DNA from: an uncultured Acidobacteriota bacterium
GTDB taxonomy: Bacteria > Actinomycetota > Acidimicrobiia > Spongiisociales > ZC4RG35
Length of the DNA: 64,000 nt
NCBI GenBank assembly: GCA_963734115.1
Contig: CAVTFV010000008.1
Coordinates: 211,581-275,580 of the forward strand
Direction: 5' to 3'
Of this stretch, positions 4,701 through 46,890 are shown piece by piece. Made by a program: the position numbers and the translations under genes. The notes below the pieces were generated by a model that saw nothing but the letters and a program-made list of their open reading frames with translations, did no database searches and had not been told where the DNA came from. Every line of letters starts with the position of its first letter. Positions within the stretch are counted from its first letter, which is position 1.

Positions 4701-5214
4701 GGAGCTTCGGAAGGTGATCAGGGCGCTGGAGGATGAGATCGAGCTCCGATTCCGGGAGGCATTCGCCGAGGTGGCCGAGGCATATCAGCGCTACTTCACG
4801 GTGCTCTTCCCGGGCGGGAGGGGGCGCATCCGGCTCGCCGAACCCGACGACCCGCATTCGGGGTTGATGATCGAGGCGCAACCACTGGGCAAGAAAGTCA
4901 GCCAGCTCACCCTGCTCTCGGGTGGGGAACGGAGTCTTGCGGCTCTCGCCTTTCTCTTCTCCATATTCGAGGCCAGACCGAGCCCGTTCTACGTGCTCGA
5001 CGAGGTCGAGGCCGCCCTCGACGATGCCAATCTGCGGCGCTTCCTCCGCATCGTCGACGAATTCCGTCAGAGGGCGCAATTGCTGATCGTGACCCATCAA
5101 CAGCAAACGATGGAGGCAGCCGATGTGCTGTACGGGGTCACGATGGAGCCGGGTGGGTCATCCCAGGTGGTCCGAAAAGACATGACCTCGGTCGGTGTCG
5201 ATCTCGCCGTCTAA
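1756..5214 (+). CDS. smc: chromosome segregation protein SMC
   Basis: 1152 aa. Walker A GPNGSGKSN at the N-terminus, long coiled-coil middle, and C-terminal LSGGERSLAALAFLFSIF...YVLDEVEAALD signature and Walker B. Confidence 0.95.
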   Translation: MFTVYLKSLKLVGFKSFADRTRLEFRPGVTVVVGPNGSGKSNLVDALSWVMGTQSTKALRTGKMEDVVFAGTATRPSLNRAEATLIIDNAERRLPLDLDEVALTRRLYRDGSSDYEINGVGCRLLDVQELLSDSGVGRHQHVIIGQGQVDEVLSASPEDHRAVIEEAAGILKHRRRKEKAERRLERTDEDVLRLQDLIGEIERQLRPLRRQARAAERYQGLKSEVRDLTLYLAGLALDSYETEMETGGLTLATLTGQIESDESLLGALTASVEALTARASSVGVDLDRDTGAAARLETTIERLRRLGAVAQERSRAVSGRRQAGIERRSDLLQELGGIAEELSGVIASETEATGSAEAMEARFRRLEDEERAIATQNALSPEGALAAVRGELSVLQAAGVRDTREVEAVERRLDVVDSQLGDESGEISRINDEIRVLDEEVSGLQDGYQKANRRRESDQKTWSGAEEVITAARLTVAAADARVDALEAALSGSLDIEARRTVEKVDGALGALVSRLDIPAGLEKAVDAALGRWADAVAFQNVDRLKGAVEVVKASGGGGVPVVSAVNRGSAPASEVASASGVEALVDLLGPRADLGLGRHLLGDVLLVEGWATALALVARHPALRAVTPEGDLISIDGVQIAQPDGAGPAMLETARATAEQAKTDLSRASSIHTAAKRDFEKSRDLERAALEKLESAETTLAGRAEAMGRLQKSVDALEGERARLKERLGSIEEGVAGREGQIADLAGRLQALEGEEASRMRVWEELESRRIQIAADREIARSDWQEATSALGVVSERRRLLEERVSRIEADLARVDGDDPAPIAVERLDVVDRYARRAVDILQGRLAILRERQAGLRAENEGTVAELSRAHADMDERRNAVAASRETVAALQVRLTELRLMKENVIESVRRDADADAEAARGAPRPPYPDDADLPAVLEERSAQLRRLGPINPLAADEFTELDERHTFLVDQLGDVESSRSELRKVIRALEDEIELRFREAFAEVAEAYQRYFTVLFPGGRGRIRLAEPDDPHSGLMIEAQPLGKKVSQLTLLSGGERSLAALAFLFSIFEARPSPFYVLDEVEAALDDANLRRFLRIVDEFRQRAQLLIVTHQQQTMEAADVLYGVTMEPGGSSQVVRKDMTSVGVDLAV

Positions 5215-24852: not shown

Positions 24853-25929
24853 TTATTCGTCCTCGGGTCGTTGCTTGTGGACCCTTCCCTCGATCCCGTG
24901 GAGCGAGAGACCGGTGCCATGTCCATAGCGAACCATGGTCATCTCGGCCAGGATGGAGACCGCCACCTCCTGCGGGCTCTCGGCGCCGATATCTAGGCCT
25001 ACCGGGCCCCGCACACGGGCTATGTCCTCCTCCGAGAAACCCATCTCATGCAGTCGCCCGACTCTGAGATCCTGCGTTCGACGGCTCCCCATGCATCCGA
25101 TGTAGCGCACCGGGCTCTTCAGACGCGGCCTCCAGCACCGGGTCTTCGTGGGGCGGGGCATGAGACAGGATGACCACCCATGTACGCCGATCGAGATCGA
25201 CTTGGCCGATGACCCTCTCCGGCCACCCGACCAGGACCCGGGCGGTAGGGAAGCGCTCCGGTGTGGCGAAGGCGCCCCGCGAGTCGATCACCGTCACCCG
25301 GTAGCCCATCTGGCCGGCGAAGTTGGCGAGAGCCTGACCGATATGGACCGCGCCCACGATCAGCATCTCCTGGGGCGGGGCGAGCGACTCGATGAACACC
25401 CCATGGGGTGGGTACTCCATGGCACGGTGCTGCTCATGATCCATGAGCACCAGGGCATCCGCCGTCACATCGGCGGCGATCTCCGATGGGAGCTCCCCGG
25501 ACACCTGCTGACCGGTGGAATCGAGAACCACCTTGGACCCCAATGATGGTCCGTCGACGAAGGTGACGACTGACCCGTACTCCTCGCGATCGAGGATGCC
25601 CTGGACCGCCTCGAGCGGCTTCACCAGGGCTCGATGAAGACGTCGATGGTCCCGCCGCAGGCCATGCCTACTTCGAAGGCGTCGTCGTCGGCGATCCCGT
25701 AGGTGACGGTCTTCGGCTTGCCCGACTCGATCACCTCTTGGGCGTGGAGGAAGACATCGTTCTCGACGCACCCGCCACTGACCGACCCTTCCATGTCTCC
25801 GGCATCCGAGACCAGGAACTTGGAGCCCTCGGGCCTGGGGGCGCTGCCCTGGACCCGGATCACCGTTGCGACGGCGACCTTCTTCCCTTCCGATGCCCAT
25901 CGGTTGCGCACTTCGATCTGATTTCTCAT
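24853..25929 (-). pseudogene. XdhC/CoxI-family accessory protein with two compensating frameshifts
   Basis: N-terminal domain (ORF 25621..25929, ...[12 protein letters not shown]). The middle Rossmann part (VKPLEAV...[29 protein letters not shown]) is in another frame. The C-terminal part ([10 protein letters not shown]...[19 protein letters not shown]) returns to the first frame. The first break maps to a C-run (FIEP-L-VKPLE is restored by adding one C). Confidence 0.7.
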
Positions 25930-27038
25930 CGCCTCGCTCCAGCCACTGAATCGAGCACCCGCACCACCCCCCGGAAGTCACTGACGCTAGCGGCGGGCAA
26001 TAGCCGATCGATGCTCGGCATCACCGCCTGCATGCCACGCGTCAGCGGCTGATATGAGGCCCTCGCCGCGAGGGGGTTGAGCCAGATCACCTGATGGACC
26101 GATCGGGCGAGTCGGGCCATTTCCGACGAGAGGACGGCGGGGTCGCCGCAATCCCAGCCGTCGGAGAGAATCATCACGACCGGGCCGCCCCTGGCCAGAC
26201 GACGGCTCCACCGTCGATTCCACTCGGCGAGAGCGTCACCGATCTGGGTCCCCCCCGACCAGTCGGTCACTCGATCGGCGACGCGGGCCAGTGCGGCCTT
26301 GGTGTCCCGACGGCGCATGTCCTCGGTGATGCGGCTGAGATGGGTGGAGAAGGTGAAGATCTCGACTTCACGCAGCCGACGCTGGGCAGCGTGGGCGAAT
26401 ACGAGGAATATGTCGGCGTACTTCTCCATCGACCCGGAGATGTCGGCGATGATGATGAGGGGGCGCTCCTTCCGCCGGCGCTGCTTCCAGCTCATAGTCA
26501 TCATGTCCCCGGTCGGTCCCACCGCGTCCCGCAGGGTGCGGCGCAGGTCGGGCCTGACCCCATCGCCGGGTGTCCATCGCCGGGTCCTGTAGTCGGTGGG
26601 ATGCCACATCATCGTCATCACCAGGCGTCGCGCCTCCTGGAGGTCCTCGTCATCGAGATCGGCGAAATCCCTGGTTGAGATCCTCTCCACCGCCGAGGCG
26701 CCACCCTGGTCGGTGACCGGCGCCACGCTGGACCCGGCCGAGCCCTGGATCGCATAACTCGACGCGTCGGTGCCCGGCTCATCCGGGTGCCGGTCGACCC
26801 ATGATGGCAGGAGGCGCCCGAAGAAGATCTCGAACTCCCGGTCGAACACCGGGATCTGATCGGGGTCGGTGACGGTCAACGAGCGCAGAGCGGCTTCGGC
26901 CTGCGACCGCCGGCTCATGTCGACCATGGAGAGGGCGCGGGCCATGTCGGTGGTCTGGTCGGAGGTGACCGTGAGACCGCGATTACGCAGGGCCGCTGAG
27001 AAGAGACTCAATTGGTCGATCAGCCCGGGCCGGCTCAT
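25926..27038 (-). CDS. coxE: VWA-domain CoxE-like accessory protein
   Basis: DISGSM MIDAS motif, C-terminal VWA. The start ATG overlaps the coxD stop (ATGA). Confidence 0.85.
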
Positions 27039-27913
27039 CCCACCAAGCTGTCGACTCCGGCGGACCGGACCATGTCGATGTCGTCCTTGTACTTGAGCAC
27101 GACGCCGATCGTGCGGTCGATCGTTGCCGGAGACAGCTCGCCCGCCTCCAGCAAACGCAACGACTCTGCCCAATCGAGTGTTTCTGCCACTCCGGGGGGC
27201 TTGAAGAGCTCCATCTCCCTGAGCCTCCTCATCGCCTCGGCCAGAGATACCGCCAGACGCCCCTCGAGATCGGGCACCTTGCGGATGATGATCTCGGCCT
27301 CCTTGGCCGCGGTTGGATAGTCGATCCAGTGATACACACAACGACGTTTGAGGGCGTCGTGTATCTCCCGGGTGCGGTTCGACGTGAGGACGACGATCGG
27401 CCTGCTCAGTGCCTTGATCGTTCCGATCTCGGGAATCGTTATCTGGAAATCGGACAGCAACTCGAGGAGAAAGGCCTCGAACTCCTCGTCCGCCCGGTCC
27501 AACTCGTCGATGAGAAGCACCGGACGGTGCCCCTCGGTGCTGGCCTCGATCGCCTGGAGCAGGGGACGAGCGATCAGGTAGTCCCGACTCATTATGTCGT
27601 CGGGGGTGGCTTCAGCGCCCTGTCCCCTTGCCTCGAGAAGGCGGATCGCCATCATCTGGCGGGCGTAATCCCACTCGTATAGCGCCTGGCCGACGTCCAG
27701 ACCCTCATAGCACTGGAGACGGATGAGCTCGGTCCCGCCCATGGCCGCCAGGACCTTGGCCACCTCGGTCTTGCCAACTCCGGCCTCCCCCTCCAGGAAA
27801 AGCGGTCTCCCCAGTTGAACTGCGAGGTGGATGGCCACTACGAGGCTCTCGTTGGCGAAGTAGTCCTGCTCGTCGAGACGTTTCTCGAGCTCGCCGATCG
27901 TGTCGGGGATCAC
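27035..27913 (-). CDS. coxD: MoxR-family AAA+ ATPase (CoxD-like)
   Basis: Walker A GEAGVGKT, Walker B LLIDELDRAD, and the MoxR C-terminal domain. Confidence 0.9.
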   Translation of the reverse strand: MIPDTIGELEKRLDEQDYFANESLVVAIHLAVQLGRPLFLEGEAGVGKTEVAKVLAAMGGTELIRLQCYEGLDVGQALYEWDYARQMMAIRLLEARGQGAEATPDDIMSRDYLIARPLLQAIEASTEGHRPVLLIDELDRADEEFEAFLLELLSDFQITIPEIGTIKALSRPIVVLTSNRTREIHDALKRRCVYHWIDYPTAAKEAEIIIRKVPDLEGRLAVSLAEAMRRLREMELFKPPGVAETLDWAESLRLLEAGELSPATIDRTIGVVLKYKDDIDMVRSAGVDSLVG

Positions 27914-27948: not shown

Positions 27949-28872
27949 GTGTACGGGGTGGCGCTCACGGTTCTCGCCTGTCTCCGCTCGGGAACCCGCG
28001 CCGACGTGGCGTGGCTGGTCGAGGCGGAAGGATTGCCCGTGACGGACTGGTCCGATGCAGTCGTGTTCACCCCTGGCGGCGGCCGGATCGGAGGATTGGC
28101 GGGCGGCGCAGTGGATGGGCAGCTGGCCGACGAGGCGGGTCGAAGGGACGTCGGTCGACTGGTCGATATCGAGGTGAGCGAGATCGACGCCTTGATCGCC
28201 GGCCTGTCGTCGGCCGGCTCCGCAAGATGCCTGCTCGTGCCGGCAGACACGCTTCCTCGAGAACTCTGGGACCTGGCGGTCGCACGGGAGCCGATCTGTC
28301 TGATCTGCAATGTCGAAGGCGGCGAAGTGGGAGACGTCAGCGTCTACACGACCGCCACGGCGGCGGGTGGCGGGGAAATCGTCGAGGGTTTGTTCGCTGC
28401 CGGCAAGAGCGGGTCGACAGTCACCGGAGATCAGGTGATCTCTGTGTTTCGGGCAGTGCCTCAGTTGGTCGTGGTGGGGGACACCGACGTCGCCACCGCT
28501 CTGGTCGAGCTGGCATCCCGGATCGGCTGGAACGCCCGCCTGGCGGCCGACTCCGGTTCGGCCACCGGCATGATCGCCACGCTGTCGGGTCAGGACAAGG
28601 TCGTGGTGACCGCGCACGATCTCGAGTTTGCGGGGACTGCGCTCAAGGCTGCCCTGGAGAGCGATGCCGGCTACATCGGGGCGATGGGCGCTCGACGGAT
28701 GCAGGAGAACCGTGCCGACTGGCTCGCCTACCGGGGGGTGACGGATCTCTCTCGAATCCATGGTCCCGCCGGACTCGACATCGGCGCCGAAACACCGGCC
28801 GAGATCGCTGTCTCGATCCTCGCCGAAGCGATCGCAGAGAACGCTGGGAATCATGTCGTTTCCAGCAGCTAG
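27949..28872 (+). CDS. XdhC/CoxI-family molybdoenzyme maturation factor (intact)
   Basis: 307 aa with the C-terminal YIGAMGARRM...GLDIGAETPAEIAVSILAE signature. Divergent from coxD. Confidence 0.85.
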   Translation: MYGVALTVLACLRSGTRADVAWLVEAEGLPVTDWSDAVVFTPGGGRIGGLAGGAVDGQLADEAGRRDVGRLVDIEVSEIDALIAGLSSAGSARCLLVPADTLPRELWDLAVAREPICLICNVEGGEVGDVSVYTTATAAGGGEIVEGLFAAGKSGSTVTGDQVISVFRAVPQLVVVGDTDVATALVELASRIGWNARLAADSGSATGMIATLSGQDKVVVTAHDLEFAGTALKAALESDAGYIGAMGARRMQENRADWLAYRGVTDLSRIHGPAGLDIGAETPAEIAVSILAEAIAENAGNHVVSSS

Positions 28873-29230: not shown

Positions 29231-30121
29231 GTGAGCGCCGATGGGGCATCCACACCGCCTGCGAGCGTCGATGAGGTGATCGCGCGTCTCGGCGAGGGTC
29301 GCTATCTGGCCGACCGCGGCCTGGCCACCGCCGTCTACGTCGCGCTGACACTGGGTCGCCCGCTCCTCCTCGAAGGTGAAGTGGGAGTGGGCAAGACAGA
29401 AGTGGCCAAGGTTCTGGCCACGGTCCTGGGGCGCCGCCTCATCCGTCTCCAGTGCTACGAGGGGATAGACACCAACCAGGCCCTCTACGAGTGGGACTAC
29501 GCCCGACAGATGCTCCAGATCAGGGCGCTGTCGGAACGCGAGCTGGCCGAAGACCATGTCGACAAGCTCTTCGGACCCAAATTCCTGCTCGAGCGTCCGC
29601 TGCTGACCGCGGTCAGGGAAGGTGACCGGGCGGTGCTGCTCATCGACGAGATCGATCGGGCCGACGACGAATTCGAGGCCTTCCTGCTCGAGTTGCTGTC
29701 CGACTATCAAATCACCATCCCGGAGATCGGCACTATCTCTGCCTCAGCCCCCCCGCTTGTCATCCTCACATCCAATCGCACCCGCGAGCTACACGACGCG
29801 TTGAAGCGGCGGTGTCTCTATCACTGGGTCGGATATCCGAGCGCCGAACGCGAAGTGGAGATCGTCCTGGTCCGTGCCCCTGGTGCCAGCGAAACCCTGG
29901 CCCGCAAGGTCGTCGCCGCCGTCGGCCATCTCCGCCAGCTCGATCTGGCAAAGCCACCCGGGGTTGCCGAGACGCTCGACTGGGTCGCCACTTTGAACGT
30001 TCTCGGCTCGGAAGACCTCGATGCCGGGACCGTGGAGGACACCCTCGGTGCCGTGGTCAAGGAGCGCGACGACCTCGAAACGGTCCTCGACCACCTCGAG
30101 GAGCTCGTCGCCGATGGCTGA
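29231..30121 (+). CDS. MoxR-family AAA+ ATPase, second copy
   Basis: Walker A GEVGVGKT, Walker B LLIDEIDRAD. About 60% identical to the first copy by eye. Confidence 0.9.
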   Translation: MSADGASTPPASVDEVIARLGEGRYLADRGLATAVYVALTLGRPLLLEGEVGVGKTEVAKVLATVLGRRLIRLQCYEGIDTNQALYEWDYARQMLQIRALSERELAEDHVDKLFGPKFLLERPLLTAVREGDRAVLLIDEIDRADDEFEAFLLELLSDYQITIPEIGTISASAPPLVILTSNRTRELHDALKRRCLYHWVGYPSAEREVEIVLVRAPGASETLARKVVAAVGHLRQLDLAKPPGVAETLDWVATLNVLGSEDLDAGTVEDTLGAVVKERDDLETVLDHLEELVADG

Positions 30122-31265
30122 ACAGTCGATCGCGGTTGATGACCGGACGTCTTTCATAGGGATGCTGGTCGGCTTCGGGGACGAGCTGCGGGACGCTGGA
30201 GTCCCGGTCGGCTCGGGAGATGTCCTCACCTATTGCGCAGCGATGGCGTTGCTCGACCCGGGCGATGTCCTCGATCTCTACTGGGCCGGCCGAACCTCGC
30301 TGGTGACACGGCGGGATCACATCCCGACATACGACCGTGTGTTCCGTACCTATTTCCTCGACCAACCTGCGAAGCCGAAGGGTCCGGCCCTCGCGATTCT
30401 GAAGCAGTCGCTCATCGAGAACCAATCGGTGATCGAGGTACCCGCCGCCGAGCCGGCACGGCCGGGCAAGGAGGAGGAGGCACGACTCGGGCTGATGGCC
30501 TCCGACATCGAGATCTGGCGGAACAAGGCATTCGCCGCCTGCACCGATGAGGAGCTCGCGGCGTTGCGCCGGATCATGAACCAGGTCAAAGTGATCCCAC
30601 CCCGACGACGCTCCCGACGAACGACCCAGTCTCGGTCCGGGAGCAGACCCGACCTTCGTCGCACCGTCCGCACCACGATGCGCACTCATGGCGAGCCCTC
30701 GGAGTTGTTTTGGCGACAGCGACGGCTTAAGACGCGACCGTTGGTCCTCATCCTCGATGTGTCGGGCTCGATGGCCGATTACTCCCGCAACCTCCTCCAG
30801 TTTGCCTATTCGACCCGGCGGGCTGCCACCAAGGTCGAGGTGTTCTGCTTTGGGACGCGGCTCACTCGCATCACGCGGGCCTTGGAGCGACGTCGCCCTG
30901 ACGATGCTCTGGACCAAGCGGCGAAGTCGGTCTTCGACTGGGAGGGCGGTACCCGGATCGGCGAATCGATCGACACCTTCGTCCGCCAGTGGGGTCGCAG
31001 GGGGATGAGCCGGGGAGCGATCGTCGTCATCTGTTCGGATGGGCTCGATCGTGGTGACCCGGCGGTCCTGGCCGCGGCCATGGAGCGGCTGTCCCGGCTA
31101 TGCCACAAGGTGGTGTGGATGAACCCCCACAAGGGCAATGACCCTGAGTTCAAGCTGACGACGCTGGGGATGATGGTTGCGGAGCCATACATCGACTTGC
31201 TTCTCTCCGGGCACGATCTGGCCAGTCTCGAGGAGCTCGCCGAGCGGCTGCCGGAGTTGAGGTGA
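30114..31265 (+). CDS. VWA-domain CoxE-like protein, second copy
   Basis: I placed the start at the internal ATG (MAEQSIAVDD), overlapping the MoxR stop by 8 nt. DVSGSM MIDAS motif. Confidence 0.85.
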   Translation: MAEQSIAVDDRTSFIGMLVGFGDELRDAGVPVGSGDVLTYCAAMALLDPGDVLDLYWAGRTSLVTRRDHIPTYDRVFRTYFLDQPAKPKGPALAILKQSLIENQSVIEVPAAEPARPGKEEEARLGLMASDIEIWRNKAFAACTDEELAALRRIMNQVKVIPPRRRSRRTTQSRSGSRPDLRRTVRTTMRTHGEPSELFWRQRRLKTRPLVLILDVSGSMADYSRNLLQFAYSTRRAATKVEVFCFGTRLTRITRALERRRPDDALDQAAKSVFDWEGGTRIGESIDTFVRQWGRRGMSRGAIVVICSDGLDRGDPAVLAAAMERLSRLCHKVVWMNPHKGNDPEFKLTTLGMMVAEPYIDLLLSGHDLASLEELAERLPELR

Positions 31266-32034: not shown

Positions 32035-32876
32035 TCACCAGGGTGTCGAGAACGTCCTGCAACTCGGTCACGTCCTCCTCCGGTGACGATCCGGGCGCCC
32101 AGCTCGCCTCGATCATGACCGGGGTGCCCTCCACATCGAGGAACCAGTATTCGACCATATCGGCTGGGTCGTACCAACGCTCGTGGTCGAAAACGGGGCC
32201 CGTCCAGGCCGGTTTGACGTCACCGCCGCACCCGGCAGGCACCTCTCCGACCAGGTGGTACCCGTTGTGGCCGAAGGCATTGACCGGCGCCAACGCCTCC
32301 CGGACCGTCAATCCATTGGTGGCGATCTGGTTGGCCAGATCGGCCGCCGTCGTCCCCGCCGCCACCGGAGCGGTCGGCTCACATACCGATGACCACACCT
32401 CGTCGACCTCGACGACCAAAAGCGACAACAGAGTGCTCGCCGCCACCACCCTCTTTTAGCGCCCCGGATGAAAACACGTCCGTCCACCCGTCACCTTCGA
32501 TGACGAACGTGCCACGAGTCGCCGTCTCCTCGTTGCCGTCGGTGTCGGCGAAGTAGGCGCCGGGGGCGAGGGGCTGAAACTCGTCCGTCAGTTCAGTGGC
32601 ATTCGGGGCCGGCTCGGCCACCGAGGTGTCGTCCCTGGTCAAGAACAGGACGAGCCCTGCGACCAGGATCACCGCCGCCGCCGCCGCGATCCCGACCAGG
32701 GGGCCCCGCCGGCGATTGCGGTCCGCCTGGACCTCAGTCGGTCTGTCATCGATCTGCATTTCCGTTCTCCTCTCGAGAAGGGTCGTGAGGACGGGCACAT
32801 CCACAGGCTCGAGGGCGTTCAGGTCCGGCAGAGGATTTGCCTTGCGGACCATGCGATCGATCTGATCGTGTGTCAT
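32024..32876 (-). pseudogene. anti-sigma-like membrane protein with extracytoplasmic domain, copy 1 (one frameshift near 32440)
   Basis: MTHDQIDRMVRKANPLPD...TM helix (GPLVGIAAAAAVILVAGLVLFL) in the frame of ORF 32379..33437. The C-terminal domain continues in the frame of ORF 32024..32449. Total length is 3n+1. Confidence 0.6.
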
Positions 32877-33437
32877 GTCGCTCCTTCCTCGGCGACCGGA
32901 GGGGAAGGGATCGGCTTGATGAGGGGCTGGAGAGCCCGAGCGAGTCTCTGGTAGGAACGGTGGATTCTCTGGTCGACCGCGGACCTGGTCATGCCCATGA
33001 TCTCGGCGATGTCGTCCCTGGGCAGATCCTCCCAGGCGTAGAGCATCACGATCTCGCGGTCTCGTCGGGCTCAGGTTCCTAACCGCCGCTGCGACGTCGG
33101 CGTCGTCAGAGCTCTGGACGACGAGGAACGCCGGGTCGACCGGGGGAGCGACACCCAGGTTGCGCAACTTCTCGTCGAGACGTGATCTGCGACGAAAAGA
33201 TCGGGTGTGATTGGAGACCACCTTGCCCGCGATGCCGTAGATGTAGAGGAGGGTCTTGGGCGGCGGTGGAATCTCGTCGATCCGGCGCCATACCACCAGG
33301 AATATCTCGGCACAGACGTCGTCGGCATCGTGTGCTGCGACCCTTCGTATGCAGTAGGCGCGCACCTTCAGCGAGTGCTCGGCCCAAATCGCTTCGAAGC
33401 GAGCCCTCCGCTCCATGTCCACCGTCGTCGTCATCAA
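32873..33437 (-). pseudogene. ECF (sigma-70 family) sigma factor, copy 1 (frameshift between region 2 and region 4 near 33065)
   Basis: Region 2 (FLVVWRRIDEIP...LLYIYGIAG) is in one frame. Region 4 (DREIVMLYAWEDLPRDDIAEIMGMTRSAVDQRIHRSYQRL) is in another. The stop overlaps the anti-sigma ATG (ATGA). Confidence 0.65.
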
Positions 33438-33522
33438 TCAGTTCCTGTCCGGATACGACACCCCGTTGACAGGATTCTGTTCGAATCTCCACCCCTATGC
33501 CTGTAGGCGGGGATACAAATGA

Positions 33523-33552
33523 GGAACGGGTCGGCGTGTGCCGACCCGTTCC
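33523..33552 (-). terminator. perfect 13-bp GC-rich hairpin (GGAACGGGTCGGC-loop-GCCGACCCGTTCC) downstream of copy 2; candidate intrinsic terminator
   Basis: Sits in the roughly 150-bp spacer between copy 1 and copy 2, about 40 nt after the copy-2 stop. On the minus strand it is followed by UCAUUUGUAU. Confidence 0.4.
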
Positions 33553-33590
33553 GTGGATAAATCGATGGTGGCTGCCCGACTAGGGGGTGA

Positions 33591-34427
33591 TCACCAGAGT
33601 GTCGAGCACCGCTTGGAGCTCGGCCACATCCTCTTCCGGGGAGCTGGCGAACGAGGCCGCTTCGACCATGACCGGGGTCCCCTCCACATCGAGGAACCAG
33701 TAATCCACGACCTGACCGGTGCCTGGTAGAAGCGCCCGAATGTGGGTCCTTCCCAGACCGGGACTCTGGTCGCCCAGCGCACCCGGTAGGGATCTCGACC
33801 ACCAGGTGGTAGCCCGTCATGGCCAAAGGCAGTGACCGGTGCCAACGCCTCCCGGATTGTGAATCCAGCGGCGGCGAACTGGTTGGCCAGGGTCCTCCGC
33901 AGTCGATCCCGGCAGCCAGGGGTTCACCACCGCCACACGCCGGCGACCACACCTCGTCGACCTGGACGACCAGGAGCGAGACAAAGTCCTCGCCAAATGC
34001 CTTTCTCGCCCCCGCTGGCATGCGATGACCACCCGCTGTCTTCGATCACGAAAGTGCCTCCGAGCGACGACGCCTCGTCTCCGTCGGTGTCGACGAAGTA
34101 GGCGCCGGGCGCGAGCCCGAATCCATCTCGTCTGGGCTGATCCGGGTCGCATTCGGGGCCGGCTCGGCCACCGGGCGTGTTATCCTTGGTCAGTAAGAAG
34201 ACGAGCCCTGCGATCAGGATCACAGCCGCCGCCGCGATCCCGACCAGGGGGCCACGCCGGCGATTGCGGTCCGCCTGGACCTCAGTCCCGGGTCTGTCAT
34301 CGATTTGCATTTCCGTCCTCCTCTCCAGAGGGGTCGTGAGGACAGGCACATCGACGATCTCGAGCGTGCTCGGGTCCGGGATCGGGTTCACCCGGCGGAC
34401 CATCTCTCGGATCTGGTCGTGCGTCAT
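33591..34427 (-). pseudogene. anti-sigma-like membrane protein, copy 2 (heavily decayed C-terminal domain)
   Basis: MTHDQIREMVRRVNPIPD...TM in the frame of ORF 33924..34988. The C-terminal domain is fragmented across ORFs 33434..34021 and 33591..33845. Confidence 0.55.
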
Positions 34428-34988
34428 GTTCACTCCTTCCTCGGCGATCGGAGGGGAATTCAGTGAACTGATCTCCAGGACGGGCACCAGGGCCCGGGAG
34501 AGCTTTTGATAGGCGCGGTGGATCCGCTGATCGACGGCGGCCCTCGTCATGCCCATCACATCGGCGATCTCTGCCCGGGACAGGCCCTCCCAGACGTCGA
34601 GCATCACGATCTCCCGGTCGACGGGCTTGAGCCGTCGGACCGCGTCCGTCACGACCTTGTCGTCGGCGCGCTGCACGACGACGAGCATCGGGTCGGCGGC
34701 AGGCGCCATCCCGAGGTTGGTGAGCTTGGTGTGGAGACGGCCCCTTCGATAGAAGGCTCGCGATCTGATTCGACAGCGATTTTGCGGGCGATCCCGTAGA
34801 GACAAGGAAGGGTCTTGGGGGCCGGCGGTATCTCGTCGATGCGCCGCCACACGACGAGAAACGTCTCGGCGCAGGCGTCCTCCGCATCGGCCGACGAGGC
34901 GCGCCGCAGGCAATAGGCCAGCACCTGGTGCCGGTGTGCGCGCCAGATCGCCTCGAATCGAGACCTGCTGGTCGGTCTGCGAAGTCAT
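34424..34988 (-). pseudogene. ECF sigma factor, copy 2 (frameshifted; region 4 reads through into the anti-sigma frame)
   Basis: Region 2 is in ORF 34649..34924 (FLVVWRRIDEIPPAPKTL). Region 4 is in ORF 33924..34988 (DREIVMLDVWEGLSRAEIADVMGMTRAAVDQRIHRAY). There is no stop before MTHDQ. Confidence 0.6.
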
Positions 34989-35118
34989 TGCCCCTTAGTG
35001 TCCACCCGTGGTGGATCGCTGACGAGATTCTTGCTCAGATCTCGTGTCATGGGTCGCGGTCACCCGGACACAAACGGGTTGCCGGAACACCGGTCAGGTG
35101 ATCCGGAGGGGAAAGAGA

Positions 35119-35143
35119 TGGGCCGGGTCGGCCCCGGCCCATC
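35119..35143 (-). terminator. perfect 10-bp hairpin (ATGGGCCGGG-TCGGC-CCCGGCCCAT) about 35 nt after the stop of the last small membrane protein; candidate terminator of the cox operon
   Basis: GC-rich stem followed on the minus strand by CUCUUUCCCCUCC. Confidence 0.35.
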
Positions 35144-35176
35144 TCGACTAAGAGCACGGAGAGGATGCGACTCGAC

Positions 35177-35588
35177 CTACGAAGGCTCTGACGTATCGGC
35201 CAGGGGGGCGTGGGCCCTGCTCCCTGGGCCGTCCGGCATGTAGCCGATGGCGTCATGCAGACGTGAGCGGCGACGACCGGATGCGGGTACCGCCGGGCCT
35301 CGCTCCGGCACCGTCTCGGGGTCGTAGGTGGCCCCGACCACGATCTTCTCGGCCATCCCATATAGGAGGGGGAGTGCGGCTGCGACGACGCCTCCCGTGC
35401 GGTTCACGTGCTCGAGATTGCCTTCGATCGAAGCGGCGTTGCCGCCGATCTTCTGCACCAGGTCGTTGCACTCCTCGAGATTGGTGGCGATCCGGGTGAG
35501 CTGCCCCCCGACGATCCATAGATAGATCGCCAGCCCGGCGATGAGCAGGACGATGTCGACGACGGTGAAGATGCACCAGGTTGCTCAT
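35177..35588 (-). CDS. small single-pass membrane protein (DUF948-like architecture), 5th of a tandem array; 1-nt frameshift just after the start
   Basis: ATG at 35588 with AAGGTG 6 nt upstream, overlapping the previous stop (ATGA). Removing one base near 35570 gives MSNLVIFTVVDIVLLIAGLAIYLWIVGGQLTRIATNLEECNDLVQKIGGNAASIEGNLEHVNR, continuous with ORF 35177..35458. Confidence 0.5.
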
Positions 35589-35878
35589 GAGCGCACCTTC
35601 CCCAGCACCCGGCCCAGGAAGAGATGGTGCTCGAGACCCTCTGCGAGGACCAGGTCGACTCCGGCAGCAGTGGTGTTCAGCAGCTCGGCATCAGCGGTGT
35701 TGGCCTCGGCCTGGGTCAGGGTCGCTTTGATGTTCTTGACTCTCTTGTCGATTCTGTGGACGAGGAGCACAAGGATCGTGAGCAAGAGCGCTACGGCGAC
35801 CACGACGGCGAGGCCGGCCCAGTTGGCGATCCGCCACAGCGTCTCCTGATTCTCGGTCAGGGCAAAGATCACGGTCAA
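35585..35878 (-). CDS. small single-pass membrane protein (DUF948-like), 4th of array
   Basis: 97 aa with TM helix WAGLAVVVAVALLLTILVLLV followed by a polar helical region. Confidence 0.55.
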   Translation of the reverse strand: MTVIFALTENQETLWRIANWAGLAVVVAVALLLTILVLLVHRIDKRVKNIKATLTQAEANTADAELLNTTAAGVDLVLAEGLEHHLFLGRVLGKVRS

Positions 35879-36374: not shown

Positions 36375-36629
36375 CTAACCCAGCAACTTCGCCACGGAGC
36401 CGGCGTAGCGGACTGCGCCGGTGGAAACGTCTTCGATCGCCTTGTCGGTGACCGCCAGCAGCTCAGGCACCCTGTCGACCTCGCCGATCAGGGCGACGCC
36501 ACCGCCGAGGATCTCATCAGAGGCACCCCTGATCCGCTCGAGAGCTGCCAGCACCCGATTGAGAAGTGCGACCAACACCGGCACCACCACCAGCAGCAGC
36601 ACCGCATTTCCGATCCACCACCAAGTCAT
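36375..36629 (-). CDS. small single-pass membrane protein (DUF948-like), 1st of array
   Basis: I placed the start at the internal ATG. MTWWWIGNAVLLLVVVPVLVALL TM helix followed by a polar region. It begins 10 nt after coxG. Confidence 0.55.
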   Translation of the reverse strand: MTWWWIGNAVLLLVVVPVLVALLNRVLAALERIRGASDEILGGGVALIGEVDRVPELLAVTDKAIEDVSTGAVRYAGSVAKLLG

Positions 36630-36639
36630 CAGCGCCTCC

Positions 36640-37221
36640 TCAGATCCGGTCGGGTTGGTAGGGGAGAAAGAACCGGCGCCCGACTCTCTTGAGCGCCATC
36701 CATGCCGCCGCGATGGCGATACCGAAGCCACTGGCGGATTTCGTCTGGATCTGGTCGGGTGAGACACCGCGGTCGTAGGCATCGATCCGCGTCTGCATGT
36801 TCGTGGCGAAGTCCCGCATCATCACCGCGCTCACGTCGCTGATCATGCCCCGCCCGTACTGCGCAGCGGCGCCGGACAACTCCAGGTCCTGCTCCACCTC
36901 CACCCTCGTTCCGTTGGCGGTGGGGACGAGGCGGGCAGTCAGCCCGAGGTTCGCCTGACCCCGGCCCTTGTCGTCGGCGCCCGAGGCGTCGACGACGATG
37001 GTCCTGTTGGCGTGATCGCGCTCCTTTACCGCGGCTTGTCCGGCGAATTGCATCTGGACTGGACCGAGCCGGATGCCGACATTCCCTGCGTATTGATCGG
37101 GGCCGATCTCGTCGGTGAGCGAGGCGCCAGGGAGACAGGCGGCGACCTGGGGGATGTCCTGACAGAACTCCCACACCTTGTCTACGTCGACCGGCACCTC
37201 GAAGTCATGTTTGATCAGCAT
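36640..37221 (-). CDS. coxG: CO dehydrogenase subunit G (SRPBCC family CoxG)
   Basis: 193 aa beginning MLIKHDFEVPVDVDKVWEF, with a C-terminal hydrophobic anchor. Confidence 0.85.
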   Translation of the reverse strand: MLIKHDFEVPVDVDKVWEFCQDIPQVAACLPGASLTDEIGPDQYAGNVGIRLGPVQMQFAGQAAVKERDHANRTIVVDASGADDKGRGQANLGLTARLVPTANGTRVEVEQDLELSGAAAQYGRGMISDVSAVMMRDFATNMQTRIDAYDRGVSPDQIQTKSASGFGIAIAAAWMALKRVGRRFFLPYQPDRI

Positions 37222-37222
37222 C

Positions 37223-38173
37223 TCATCCCCTGACTGTCATGTACGCGGAGGGGTCTTTCTCGAAGGCCGCCCGGCATCCCGGGCAGCAGAAGTAATAGGT
37301 CTGACCCTCGTATTCGAACGGGCGACTGCTCTCATCGGCAGGCACGGTCATGCCGCAAACGAGGTCTACGGCGGTGCCTGCGGCTGCGTGCTCATGGCCA
37401 TGACCGGAATGGTGGTGCTCGATGGGCATCGCGTTCGATTCCGCCAGGGGCGCGGGGTCGAAGGCACCCTTGGCCCGAAGCTCCACCAACTCGGCAAGAA
37501 CGGAGACTGCGATTTCGGGATGTGACGTGTGGCCGAGGTCGAGGCCTACGGGGACCCTCACTTGATCCAAGAGGTCACGGGGGACACCCCGTTCGGCGAG
37601 GTAGCCGAGGACCGCCTCGCCACGCTTGGACGAGGCTACGAGCCCCACGAAGGCCGGGCGCGCGTTCACTGCCTGCTCGACCGCCTCCTCGTCACCGTGA
37701 CCCTGAGTGGCGACCACCACGACCGACCAGCTGCCGACATGAGCGGTCTTGAAGTCGGGTACATCGACCAAGTCAGCGCGCCAGCCGACCCCGGCCGCAA
37801 GCTCCACCAGGGTGGCGGCCATTGGGGATCTGCCCACGACCACCAGGTGGGGGCTGGGAAGTACTGGCTCGACATAGAGCTGCAGCGCGCCCTCGGACTG
37901 GCACGACATCTGGACGAACGTCATGCCTTCGGCAACCTCGCCGAACTGGTCGGGGTCGCCGAGCAAGATCAGACGCGGGACCCGTTCTTCGATGGCGCGC
38001 TGCGCCTCCCGAACGACGACCGGCTCGGCACAGGCCCCGCCGATCCAGCCGTGCATCTGGCCGTCGGCAGTGATGATGGCCCGCGACCCTTGCTGCCCTG
38101 AGGAGGGCGCCTGGCGCCAGACCACGGTGGCCAGGGCGAATTCGACGCCCTGGCGGGCGAGATCGCTGGCCAT
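37223..38173 (-). CDS. XdhC/CoxF-family maturation factor fused to a C-terminal YHS (TRASH-like) metal-binding domain
   Basis: XdhC core (VPVGLDLGHTSHPEIAVSVLAE), a His-rich linker (HHHSGHGHEH), then CGMTV...YEGQTYYFCCPGCRAAFEKDP. The start has GGAGG 9 nt upstream. This gene was artificially joined to coxL in the 1183-aa ORF 37223..40774. Confidence 0.8.
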   Translation of the reverse strand: MASDLARQGVEFALATVVWRQAPSSGQQGSRAIITADGQMHGWIGGACAEPVVVREAQRAIEERVPRLILLGDPDQFGEVAEGMTFVQMSCQSEGALQLYVEPVLPSPHLVVVGRSPMAATLVELAAGVGWRADLVDVPDFKTAHVGSWSVVVVATQGHGDEEAVEQAVNARPAFVGLVASSKRGEAVLGYLAERGVPRDLLDQVRVPVGLDLGHTSHPEIAVSVLAELVELRAKGAFDPAPLAESNAMPIEHHHSGHGHEHAAAGTAVDLVCGMTVPADESSRPFEYEGQTYYFCCPGCRAAFEKDPSAYMTVRG

Positions 38174-38208
38174 CTCGATCATCCTCCACCCATCGGCAGG
38201 CTGGGCAC

Positions 38209-40593
<2,385 letters not shown>

Positions 40594-40597
<4 letters not shown>

Positions 40598-41118
40598 CCT
40601 TGATCCTCCAGCTTCTTTGCCGCCCACATGACCGCCTTGACGATGTTCTGGTAGCCGGTGCAGCGGCAGAGATTGCCGCTCAATGCCCATCGGATCTCGT
40701 CCTCGGTCGGGTTCGGGTTCTCCTCGAGCAGGGCCTTGGAGGCCATCATCATCCCGGGAGTGCAGAACCCGCACTGGAGCCCGTGCTCCTCCTTGAACCC
40801 TTCCTGTATGGCGTGCAGCTCACTGGGACCTGCCAGGCCCTCAACGGTCATCACGTCATGCCCGTCGGCTTGGACGGCGAACATCGTGCAGCTCTTCACC
40901 GGCGTGCCGTCGAAGAGCACGGTGCATGCCCCGCAGTTGGAGGTGTCGCAGCCGGTGTGGGTGCCGGTGAGATGGAATCCCTGACGGAGGAGATGGGCGA
41001 GGACGAGACGGGGCTCGACCACGGCTGTTCGGGTCTCGCCGTTGACCGTGACTGTGATCTGCCTCGTCGGCGTCTCCGCGGCCGCCCCCGGGCTGACCTC
41101 TTGGAACAGGCTGGTCAT
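40594..41118 (-). CDS. coxS: CO dehydrogenase small [2Fe-2S] subunit CoxS
   Basis: 174 aa with both cysteine clusters ([11 protein letters not shown] and [10 protein letters not shown]...CRCTGY). Confidence 0.95.
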
Positions 41119-41119
41119 G

Positions 41120-41995
41120 TCAGGCCGCCTCCTCTTCCGATCGAATCAACCCGGTCAGGATCCTGCTGGTGAAGACGCTGACCAGCTGCTTCTTGTAGGA
41201 GGCGCTGCCTCGATGATCGGTCCGGGGTTGGGCTGCCTGCGCCGCCAGCGAGGCGGCCTCACCGATCACATCGGCTGTGAGCGAACTGCCAACCAGCACC
41301 TGGGCGGCATCATCGGCTGAGATGGTCGAAGGACCCACTCCGGTCAGGCCAATGCCCGCCCTGGTGACCTCACGGCCGTTTCGGTCGACGGAAACGGCGA
41401 CCCCGACCGTGGCGAAATCGCCCACGCGGCGCTCCAACTTCAGATAGCCGCCAGCCGGCTCGCCCTGGGGGGCGGGAGCGATCGCCTCCACCACCACCTC
41501 GTCGTAGGCGAGGTTTGTCTGGAACGGGCCGCGGACGAGCTCCTTGACCGGGATTGTCCGCCGGCCACCTTGACCCTGTGCCACAACCGAGGCATCCAAC
41601 GAGACCATCACCGATGCCCAGTCTCCCTGTGGGTCGGCGTGACACAGGGAACCGACCAGAGTGCCGCGATTTCGCACGATCGGGTCGGCGACGAGTGGCG
41701 CCGCCGCAGCCATGGTGGGCTGATGGCCGGCCAGCAACGAAGAGCGCTCCAGGTCGGCGTGACGGCACAGCGCCCCGACGTGGATCGATCCGTCGGCATC
41801 GATCCGGTGATAGTCCAAACCGGCAATCTCGTTGATGTCGACCAGCATCTCCGGGGAAGCGAACCGGAGCTTGATCATCGGGACCAGGCTCTGGCCTCCG
41901 GCCAGCACCTTGGCATCGCCACCCCCGTCGGCCAGGAGCGCGGAAGCTTCCTCGATCGACCTGGGAGCCTCGTAGCGAAATCGAGAGGGGTAGAT
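41120..41995 (-). CDS. coxM: CO dehydrogenase medium FAD-binding subunit CoxM; probable ATC initiation codon
   Basis: FAD-binding motifs ([28 protein letters not shown]). The N-terminus (I)[20 protein letters not shown] aligns to M-I-P-G-S-F-D-Y... of characterised CoxM, so the ATC at 41995..41993 sits at the initiator position. AAGGAGG lies 5 nt upstream. There is no in-frame ATG/GTG/TTG for 75 codons upstream. Confidence 0.85.
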
Positions 41996-45067: not shown

Positions 45068-46403
45068 ATGTTCGACAGCCTGACCCAACGATTCGAGGAC
45101 GTCTTTGCCTCGCTGCGAGGAAAAGGGCGTCTCTCCGAGAAGGACATCGACGCTGCTTTGCGCGAGGTCCGTCTCGCCCTGCTCGAAGCGGATGTCAACG
45201 TCAAGGTGGTCAAGGACTTCCTGGCTCGGGTCAAGGAACGGGCCATAGGGGAGGATGTCTCCAAGTCGCTCTCACCGGGCCAACAGGTGATCAAGATCGT
45301 CCACGAGGAGTTGGTGAGAACCCTCGGCTCGGAGGCGGTGCCGCTGAAGAAGGCCGCCCCGCCACTGACCATCCTCATGGTCGGGCTCCAAGGCTCGGGT
45401 AAGACCACTACCGCCGGCAAACTCGCCCGTCTGCTCAAGAGCCAGGGCAAGAAGCCATTGCTCGTGGCGGCAGACCTGCAGCGCCCCGCCGCGATCGACC
45501 AGCTCGAAACTCTTGGTGGCCGTATCGACGTCCCGGTCTTCGTCGATCGCAAGGGCAAACCCGCGCGCCTGGTCAAGGCCGCATTGAAGGAAGCGACGCG
45601 GACAGGGCGTGACGTGGTGATCGTCGATACCGCGGGCCGTCTTCAGATCGACCAACAGCTGATGCGTGAATTGGACGATGTCCGGAAGTCCGCCGACCCC
45701 GACGAGGTGCTTCTCGTCGTCGATGCCATGACCGGCCAGGATGCAGTCAATGTCGCTTCCGGCTTCCAGGAGCAGGTTGGCCTCACCGGCGTCGTCCTCT
45801 CCAAGCTCGACGGTGACGCACGAGGGGGGGCCGCGATCTCGGTGCGGGAAGTGACCGGGGCTCCGGTGAAATTCGCCGGCATGGGTGAGGGTCTCGACGA
45901 CCTCGAGCCGTTCTATCCCGACCGGATGGCCTCCCGGATCCTGGGCATGGGCGACGTGATGAGCCTGATAGAGAAGGCCGAGGCGACTTTCGACGAGGCG
46001 GAGGCGGAGAAGACCGCCAAGAAGCTGCAGAAGGGTGAATTCACCCTGGAGGACTTCCTCGCTCAGTTCCAGGCGATGAAGCAGATGGGGCCTCTCAAGG
46101 ACATCCTTGCTATGATCCCGGGTTCCGGTTCGCTCATGCGCGAGGTGGATGTCGACGACCGTGACCTGCGTCGCGTCGAGGCAATCATTCAGTCGATGAC
46201 TCCAGAAGAGCGCCGGAACCCAAAGCTCATCGGCGGCAGCCGAAAGCGCCGTATCGCTGTCCGGTTCGGGCACCAGGCCTCAGGACGTGAATCGGGTGCT
46301 CAAGCAGTTCGTCGACGCGCAGAAGATGATGAAGATGCTGGCCGGCGGCAAAGGGGCCCCCTCGTTGCAGGGTCTCTTCCCGGCACAGCGAACCAAGAGG
46401 TGA
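45068..46403 (+). CDS. ffh: signal recognition particle protein Ffh; single-base frameshift near 46258 in the M domain
   Basis: NG domain is intact ([15 protein letters not shown]). The true C-terminus, [50 protein letters not shown], is in the +1 frame. Removing one base from GCTGTCCGG restores it. This is an essential gene. Confidence 0.9.
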
Positions 46404-46407
46404 ATCG

Positions 46408-46890
46408 ATGGCCGTGAAGATGAGATTGATGCGGATGGGGAAGAAGAAGACCCCTTCGTATCGCGTCGTGGTGGTGGACGGCCGTGCGCCGCGTGATGGC
46501 CGCTACATCGAGCAGATCGGGCGGTACGACCCGCAGCAGGACCCATCGCTCGTCGAGATCGACAATGAGAAGGCCGCTTCGTGGCTGTCGAAGGGGGCAC
46601 AACCCACCGAGGCCGTCGAGAAGCTCCTCAACATCTCTGGGGCGATGAACACGATGAAGGTCCGCACCGGCCAGATCCACACCGTCGGCTCCACGCGCCC
46701 CGCGGCCGAGGAGGCCGCCAGTGGAGTCGCCGAGCCCGCTGCGGCTTCTGCCGCGGTGGATGAGCCGGTGGTCGAGACTTCCGCCTCTGAGGAGGCGGCC
46801 GACACCGAGACCCTGGCTGCTCAGGAGCCGGTAGTCGAAGAGCCGGTTGCCGAGGAGATAGCAGCCGACACGTCCAACGAGGAGGAGTGA
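46408..46890 (+). CDS. rpsP: 30S ribosomal protein S16 with acidic Ala/Glu-rich C-terminal extension
   Basis: [42 protein letters not shown]. Confidence 0.9.

Follow-up and report, generated by a model that had tools for sequence, protein, structure and literature searches.

A gene encoding a CoxF-type maturation factor with a C-terminal YHS domain (coxF-YHS) was found in the form-I aerobic carbon monoxide dehydrogenase (CODH) operon of a 64,000-nucleotide stretch of DNA from an uncultured member of the Acidimicrobiia (contig CAVTFV010000008.1, positions 211,581 to 275,580 of the forward strand; hereafter the window, with position 1 as its first letter). We propose, with a probability of roughly 0.6, that CoxF uses the YHS domain as a tethered arm to carry Cu(I) into the Mo-S-Cu site of CODH. 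A role in copper delivery had been put forward in the original prediction made from this DNA, and it is supported by the orthology of the protein to CoxF, the link of the fusion to form-I CODH, the interchange of the YHS domain with HMA domains or Cys-Cys tails, and the near-invariance of the putative YHS ligands. The gene and the parts of its product are as follows.

37223..38212, minus strand: coxF-YHS gene, 329 amino acids (aa) from a GTG start, based on translation, Pfam matches, an upstream start conserved in relatives, and a GTGA overlap with the coxL stop
37970..38158, minus strand: XdhC_CoxI N-terminal domain, residues 19-81 of 329 (PF02625, E 5e-16), which holds GGAC61
37487..37846, minus strand: XdhC_C Rossmann domain, residues 123-242 of 329 (PF13478, E 3.5e-22)
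37370..37465, minus strand: flexible linker, approximately residues 250-281 of 329, with an AlphaFold predicted local distance difference test score (pLDDT) below 50 for residues 256-276
37388..37417, minus strand: His-rich stretch HHHSGHGHEH within the linker
37235..37369, minus strand: YHS domain, residues 282-326 of 329 (PF04945, E 5.1e-13, 49.2 bits; pLDDT 85-94)

Identification of the CoxF orthologue

The cox cluster on pHCG3 of Oligotropha (Afipia) carboxidovorans OM5 contains two XdhC-type genes, namely coxF (280 aa, between coxE and coxG) and coxI (335 aa). When pHCG3 was searched by tblastn with the window protein, the single matched place was CoxF (34840-35682). BLASTP comparison gave 34% identity to CoxF over the whole core (122 bits, E 2e-37) and 21% identity to CoxI (42 bits, E 9e-9). 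Additionally, coxG directly follows coxF-YHS in the window, as it follows coxF in pHCG3, and the identity of the window protein as CoxI was rejected on both similarity and synteny. The gene lies directly downstream of a coxL with the form-I motif AYRCSFR, as originally predicted, with coxG next and coxD and coxE nearby, which places it in a form-I cox cluster. These comparisons identify the window protein as the orthologue of CoxF in a form-I (Mo-S-Cu) aerobic CODH operon. The CoxI-type role in the window is more likely filled by XdhC_b, a second XdhC-type paralogue, whose own sequence is ambiguous between the CoxF and CoxI types.

In O. carboxidovorans, mutants in coxF and coxE yielded CODH that was complete in Mo and contained sulfane sulfur but no Cu, and CoxF was proposed as the copper supplier from sequence motifs (Pelzmann et al. 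2014, PMC4240915). The CoxF of pHCG3 (WP_013913733.1, 280 aa) has the same XdhC_CoxI and XdhC_C core as the window protein and both of its conserved core Cys residues, including one in 'MCPSHGTM'. Unlike the window protein, it has neither a YHS domain nor a Cys-rich C-terminus, and the RHGQRQS 'phytase' motif of its C-terminal tail has no counterpart in the window protein. The gene orders also differ, with coxL-D-E-F-G in pHCG3 and coxL-F-G in the window, where coxD and coxE are located elsewhere. XdhC proteins of the CoxI/Rv0376c type (pHCG3 CoxI; PDB 2we7/2we8; 3on5) share the two Pfam domains and the fold of the window protein but have a longer inter-domain insert and no YHS domain.

Domain architecture of the CoxF-YHS protein

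An XdhC core followed by a His-rich linker and a YHS domain had been read from the sequence, and this architecture was borne out by the translation and by Pfam. In a 316-aa version of the product, which lacks the first 13 residues of the 329-aa numbering used for the features above and for the residues named below, the matches were XdhC_CoxI at residues 6-68 (E 5e-16, 58.8 bits, cut-off 24.3), XdhC_C at residues 110-229 (E 3.5e-22, 79.7 bits, cut-off 29.7), and YHS at residues 269-313 (E 5.1e-13, profile positions 2-45 of 47). All three exceeded their gathering scores; the C-terminal 45 residues, on whose recognition as YHS/TRASH the original prediction had been made to depend, scored 49.2 bits as YHS against a cut-off of 30.3. 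The XdhC-type matches in NCBIfam were all below threshold.

Within the core, the Cys of the GGAC61 motif was conserved in at least 90% of 150 representatives. A conserved MSC104QSEG motif lies between the two core domains, just upstream of XdhC_C, and it aligns with 'M107CPSHGTM' of the pHCG3 CoxF, for which Pelzmann et al. proposed a copper site (PMC4240915).

The putative metal ligands of the YHS domain are D283, C286, M288, C309, and C313, in the pattern Asp-x2-Cys-x-Met ... Cys-x3-Cys. D283, C286, C309, and C313 were invariant in 36 relatives. Among 81 representatives, the first Cys (C286) and the last Cys (C313) were conserved in all 81, the 'FC' Cys (C309) in 80, the adjoining Met (M288) in 78, and D283 in 75, while C310, the second Cys of 'CC', was variable (52 of 81). 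For this domain, which had been described as YHS/TRASH-like, the YHS match is clear, and that to the Pfam family TRASH_HVO_1752_C is borderline (27.4 bits, cut-off 27). Canonical TRASH is a related small Cys-rich metal-binding fold with the same C-X3-C second half-site, and C286-x22-C309-x3-C313 is present in the window protein. However, the complete motif C-X2-C-X19-22-C-X3-C is absent, and because the first half-site is C286-G-M288 and not C-X2-C, the domain was not filed as canonical TRASH.

In the AlphaFold model, computed from a 36-sequence alignment (mean pLDDT 82.4), the XdhC core and the YHS domain are both confidently predicted and are connected by a disordered joint (residues 256-276) that includes the His-rich stretch. 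Foldseek searches with the core gave the XdhC structures 2we8 and 3on5 as top matches (probability 1.00), and the structure search yielded neither a solved CoxF-type protein nor a solved XdhC-YHS fusion. The linker, approximately 25-30 residues long in the window protein, varied in both length and sequence among the CoxF-YHS relatives. As a conserved metal site, the His-rich linker was rejected, since only 41 of the 176 close relatives, and only 2 of the 77 representatives, had linkers with three or more His residues; judging from this distribution, it is a lineage-specific extra.

Many CoxF-YHS relatives carry an extra Cys at the very end of the protein (..EARC, ..QEAQC, or ..EEAAC; e.g., P0034, P0047, P0090, P0102, and L042). 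The window protein ends in ..MTVRG, without this residue.

Distribution of the fusion and its link to form-I CODH

Both XdhC and YHS were present in all of the 120 best protein matches (66-90% identity to the window protein), which were named, where they were named at all, 'XdhC family protein' or 'xanthine dehydrogenase accessory factor'. A few proteins from a later profile search carried the names 'YHS domain-containing protein' or 'TRASH domain-containing protein'. A genome scan with one genome per species yielded 513 loci with relatives, of which the best 80 were examined. These belonged to Acidimicrobiia, Micromonosporaceae, Streptosporangiaceae, and Pseudonocardiaceae and included the cultured species Rhizocola hellebori, Planosporangium flavigriseum, and Virgisporangium aurantiacum. 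The YHS domain was found in every one of the 80 loci examined, and a coxL with AYRCSFR was located immediately upstream in all 76 loci with enough flanking sequence. The gene was followed by coxG in 79 of the 80, and in the other locus the contig ends at this point. Gene order was conserved as coxM-S-L-F(YHS)-G-small open reading frame (ORF), and XdhC_b-coxD-coxE were often convergent with this set, as in the window.

The same fusion was identified in the form-I cox clusters of Thermomicrobium roseum (Thermomicrobiota), the haloarchaeon Natronorubrum bangense, Paraburkholderia aromaticivorans, where it occupies the classical slot after coxD-coxE, and Deinococcus sp. AJ005, whose YHS domain is degenerate. 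It was also present in the cluster of Caballeronia sp. SBC1 (pSBC1_2, locus L086; coxL 2764-5178). This cluster seemed to be an exception because its CoxL gave no match to AYxCSFR; the motif is the variant AYRCSFM in place of AYRCSFR, and the cluster is otherwise complete. Two very divergent YHS representatives of low GC (guanine plus cytosine) content were cox-linked as well. A profile search with the distant fusions added little new diversity because actinobacterial sequences dominated the results.

C-terminal modules across the CoxF family

A search with the core alone (residues 1-250) against 1.84 billion cluster representatives gave 9887 matches at E ≤1e-3 and 327 at 1e-30. We examined the best 150 of these matches, among which 105 had a full-length core. 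The YHS domain was found in 77 of the 105, and several further representatives had frameshifted or truncated YHS copies. About nine of the 105 ended in a Cys-Cys tail (..SCCQG, ..GCCGG, ..HCCHD, or ..SCCGGEK); those with such a tail and no YHS were P0269, P0276 (L089, 8001-8870), P0306, P0313, P0319, P0325, P0326, and P0330. The one Cys-Cys-tail version whose surroundings were checked was within a form-I cox cluster. Only a few distant representatives had CPxCGM, a TRASH-like first half-site.

A single representative of the 105 (P0235) carried an HMA domain with GMSCAHC. The gene for this XdhC-HMA protein takes the place of coxF in a cluster of the order coxM-S-L-G-D-E-[XdhC-HMA]-mocA, in which CoxL shows the AYRCSFR motif (L087, 8001-9038, AP019797.1; L088). 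The HMA domain, which has the fold of the CopZ/Atx1 chaperones, sits exactly where the window protein has its YHS domain, although it differs from YHS in fold and ligand set (MxCxxC) and the window protein itself has no HMA. Its presence in the YHS position of a form-I cluster suggests that the two modules have equivalent functions.

No C-terminal Cys module was found in the alphaproteobacterial CoxF proteins that were checked (Oligotropha, Bradyrhizobium, Roseivivax, and Marivivens). As a negative control, the 120 best relatives of XdhC_b, the paralogue from the same clusters, were inspected, and none of them (0 of 120) had a YHS domain. Likewise, none of the plasmid matches to non-CODH XdhC or YqeB proteins aligned over the YHS region.

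On a plasmid of Marivivens sp. JLT3646, a 40-aa hypothetical protein ending in ..VKFPCC is encoded between the YHS-less coxF and coxG (L094, 7755-7877). This protein could represent the Cys-Cys tail in split form.

Proposed copper delivery and alternative explanations

In the mechanism that we propose, the YHS domain would capture Cu(I) from the cytoplasmic copper pool, and the XdhC core would dock on the CoxL of folded, sulfurated CODH. The YHS domain, acting as a tethered arm, would then pass Cu, directly or via the core, to the sulfurated Mo site [MoO2-SH] of the otherwise folded enzyme, so that the Mo-S-Cu-S(Cys) cluster would be completed after CoxD-dependent sulfuration. Cu(I) binding by the window YHS domain, as well as the direction and target of the transfer, is what we infer from sequence comparison. 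The closest biochemical precedent is the YHS domain (also PF04945) of a Mycobacterium phlei adenylyl cyclase, which is activated specifically by copper and for which one Asp and three Cys were proposed as ligands (Linder 2015, PMC4626032). This pattern corresponds to D283, C286, C309, and C313 of the window protein. In the M. phlei cyclase and in Cu-transporting P-type ATPases, the YHS domain regulates an enzyme or a pump, whereas in the window it is joined by a linker to a maturation factor for a molybdoenzyme.

Several observations weigh against copper delivery by the YHS arm. The one CoxF that has been studied experimentally functions without a C-terminal Cys module, as do its alphaproteobacterial relatives; therefore, the YHS domain is not universally required, and the module would be an accessory and not the catalytic essence of CoxF. 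In Deinococcus sp. AJ005 (p380k, L084, 7974-9035), neither the first Cys nor the Met of the YHS domain is retained (PVDGEE), 'FTC' stands in place of 'FCC', and the domain scores 29.1 in Pfam, slightly short of the cut-off. AlphaFold gave the YHS domain no confident placement relative to the core (predicted template modelling score, pTM, 0.61). YHS/TRASH folds are able to bind structural zinc, and for the YHS part Foldseek gave only short local matches, located in the C-termini of toluene/o-xylene monooxygenase and phenol hydroxylase. Finally, coxL is frameshifted in the window, though this is probably an assembly error.

In one alternative, the YHS domain would act as a sensor or switch for copper, Cu binding would allosterically license the XdhC core (e.g., for release of the sulfurated site or engagement of CoxE), and the copper of CODH would come from another carrier. 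The only YHS biochemistry that we found, the Cu-specific activation of an adenylyl cyclase (PMC4626032), is of a regulatory kind. The ability of alphaproteobacterial CoxF to function without YHS would also suit a sensor. However, HMA, a classic fold for Cu(I) trafficking, takes the place of the YHS domain in one lineage and bare Cys-Cys tails do so in others, and the flexible tether in the model would fit delivery better than allostery. We consider a sensor unlikely.

A structural zinc ribbon, which would only mediate docking to CoxL, CoxE, or CoxG and carry no cargo metal, is in our view similarly improbable. Such a role would be in line with the local fold matches to the YHS-like C-terminal region of toluene/o-xylene monooxygenase and phenol hydroxylase, the latter of which holds a Cys4 zinc site, and with weak Pfam matches to the zinc-finger-like TRASH and zf-FCS families. 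On the other hand, 78 of 81 representatives keep a Met beside the first Cys, as is characteristic of Cu(I) rather than Zn sites. A specific docking surface is hard to square with substitution by HMA or Cys-Cys, and the restriction of YHS to the copper-containing form-I system also speaks against a zinc ribbon.

Least probable by a clear distance is an ordinary XdhC chaperone for insertion or sulfuration of the molybdenum cofactor (Moco) in which YHS sequesters stray copper or another thiophilic metal to protect Moco or its sulfido ligand: XdhC proteins do act as chaperones of Moco and shield its sulfido ligand (PMC4240915), and a paper on metal susceptibility in the xanthine oxidoreductase family also came up in the literature search (PMC10434068), but a scavenger would be equally useful to other XdhC paralogues, and yet XdhC_b never carries YHS (0 of 120) and the non-CODH XdhC plasmid matches do not align over the YHS region. 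The sensor, the zinc docking module, and the scavenger are all less consistent with the module interchange than is copper delivery.

Beyond delivery of Cu(I) by CoxF-YHS itself, we tentatively suggest, at slightly less than even odds, that CoxF-type XdhC proteins are modular metallochaperones in which the scaffold recognises folded, sulfurated CODH and a tethered, thiol-rich and interchangeable module (YHS in most lineages, elsewhere HMA or a Cys-Cys tail) carries the Cu(I) needed to complete the Mo-S-Cu cluster. The alphaproteobacterial CoxF would then be a derived, module-less form with a separate copper source, which, if true, would explain why the copper route has remained obscure. A CtaG-type copper assembly gene, listed within a Parageobacillus cox cluster in one preprint, fits the idea that lineages have recruited different copper modules.

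Novelty and significance

A full-text literature search found no paper that combined XdhC or CoxF with YHS or TRASH, and the CoxF literature that was found covers the YHS-less alphaproteobacterial protein only. The XdhC-YHS architecture is nevertheless common in databases under generic names, and the window gene is an ordinary member of a large set, while the variant as such appears to be undescribed. The original prediction had foreseen that the fusion might turn out to be widespread and already annotated, and this proved to be the case, with annotation that is generic only. The novelty is lowered by this, and the functional inference is not.

Aerobic CODH consumes atmospheric CO globally, and the only model of copper supply to its buried Mo-S-Cu site is built on a single alphaproteobacterial CoxF together with speculative motifs (the phytase motif and 'MCPSHGTM'). 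A YHS domain that is conserved on most non-alphaproteobacterial CoxF proteins and swapped for HMA or Cys-Cys in some lineages provides 'Rosetta-stone' evidence for CoxF as a copper carrier. Experimentally accessible CoxF-YHS proteins are present in cultured T. roseum (WP_143714800.1), R. hellebori, P. flavigriseum, P. aromaticivorans, and N. bangense. The finding is of interest since it makes copper insertion into CODH accessible to concrete experiments, and it could aid the heterologous production of active Mo-Cu CODH.

Start codon of coxF-YHS

Translation of 38173..37223 on the minus strand reproduced the 316-aa protein of the original prediction, including HHHSGHGHEH and CGMTV...YEGQTYYFCCPGCRAAFEKDP. 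The gene boundary of 37223-38173 given there, however, most likely misses the first 13 codons. The coxF-YHS relatives, which start as M..AQPADGWRMIEMASDL, 13 codons earlier, share an upstream ATG or GTG at -39/-42, and the peptide encoded by the extra N-terminal codons (DGW..[IV]E) is maintained even at 60-65% identity. The Met at the position of 38173 is missing in many relatives (e.g., MVEKA and ILEKA) that keep the upstream start and the intervening peptide. For these reasons, the ATG at 38173 was rejected and the start was moved to the GTG at 38212, which most likely begins a product of 329 aa. This GTG overlaps the coxL stop as GTGA, and coxF-YHS is translationally coupled to coxL.

The ATG start was rejected even though a good GGAGG sequence lies 8 nt upstream of 38173.

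Organization of the cox operon and the coxL frameshift

The genes of the operon are encoded on the minus strand in the order coxM-S-L-F-G, and neighbours abut or overlap by 1-4 nt; the start of coxL, for example, overlaps the coxS stop as ATGA. The genes coxD and coxE lie within approximately 8 kb of coxF-YHS, and XdhC_b is located upstream of them, convergent with coxMSLFG, an arrangement shared by many related loci. The neighbouring genes are listed below.

41120..41990, minus strand: coxM, FAD-binding medium subunit (Pfam FAD_binding_5 and CO_deh_flav_C); the ORF extends to 42220 and the start is approximate
40594..41118, minus strand: coxS, small subunit with 2x[2Fe-2S] (Pfam Fer2_2 and Fer2)
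38209..40597, minus strand: coxL, form-I CODH large subunit with the AYRCSFR motif and a 1-nt insertion at 38634
36640..37221, minus strand: coxG, SRPBCC family (Pfam COXG, E 3.9e-16), beginning 1 nt after the coxF-YHS stop
36375..36629, minus strand: small conserved ORF of approximately 84 aa with a hydrophobic N-terminal helix, 11 nt after coxG
27949..28872, plus strand: XdhC_b, second XdhC-type paralogue, matching Pfam XdhC_C (PF13478, the Rossmann half) only
29231..30121, plus strand: coxD-like MoxR AAA+ ATPase (Pfam AAA_5 and AAA)
30118..31265, plus strand: coxE-like VWA protein (Pfam VWA_CoxE, E 4.5e-56); the ORF is listed from 30021 and the start is likely near 30118

Pfam detected neither an XdhC_CoxI domain nor a YHS domain in XdhC_b. 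The small ORF at 36375..36629 had no Pfam match; tblastn located it behind coxG in most of the 80 related loci, and it may encode an undescribed cox accessory protein.

The reading frame of coxL is not intact in the window, where one extra base at 38634 is present that is absent from eight relatives (CTGCAGGC in the window, CTGC-GGC in the relatives). Removal of this base restored an intact CoxL of 795 aa. The coxF-YHS gene had been described as hidden inside a chimeric ORF of 1183 aa. This ORF does exist, and its cause is the insertion, which puts the N-terminal part of coxL into the frame of coxF. A genuine CoxL-XdhC fusion protein was rejected, because the C-terminal 140 codons of coxL are correct only in another frame and the eight relatives lack the extra base.

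A second frame change was observed in the signal-recognition-particle gene ffh (45068..46417, plus strand), near the C-terminus at approximately 46260, after RKRRIA. Since ffh is essential and is frameshifted too, and since related loci from long-read metagenome-assembled genomes show coxL breaks of their own, the indels in coxL and ffh are most likely assembly errors. On the same grounds, it was considered unlikely that coxL is a genuine pseudogene.

Two further regions of the window were noted. A second gene set on the minus strand (25046..27913) encodes a MoxR ATPase, a CoxE-like VWA protein, and an XdhC-like protein; the XdhC-like ORF has only a partial XdhC_C match and looks frameshifted. 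At 32379..34988, also on the minus strand, there are two tandem similar sigma-factor/anti-sigma-like ORFs (352 and 354 aa) with near-identical segments, which are seemingly disrupted by frame changes.

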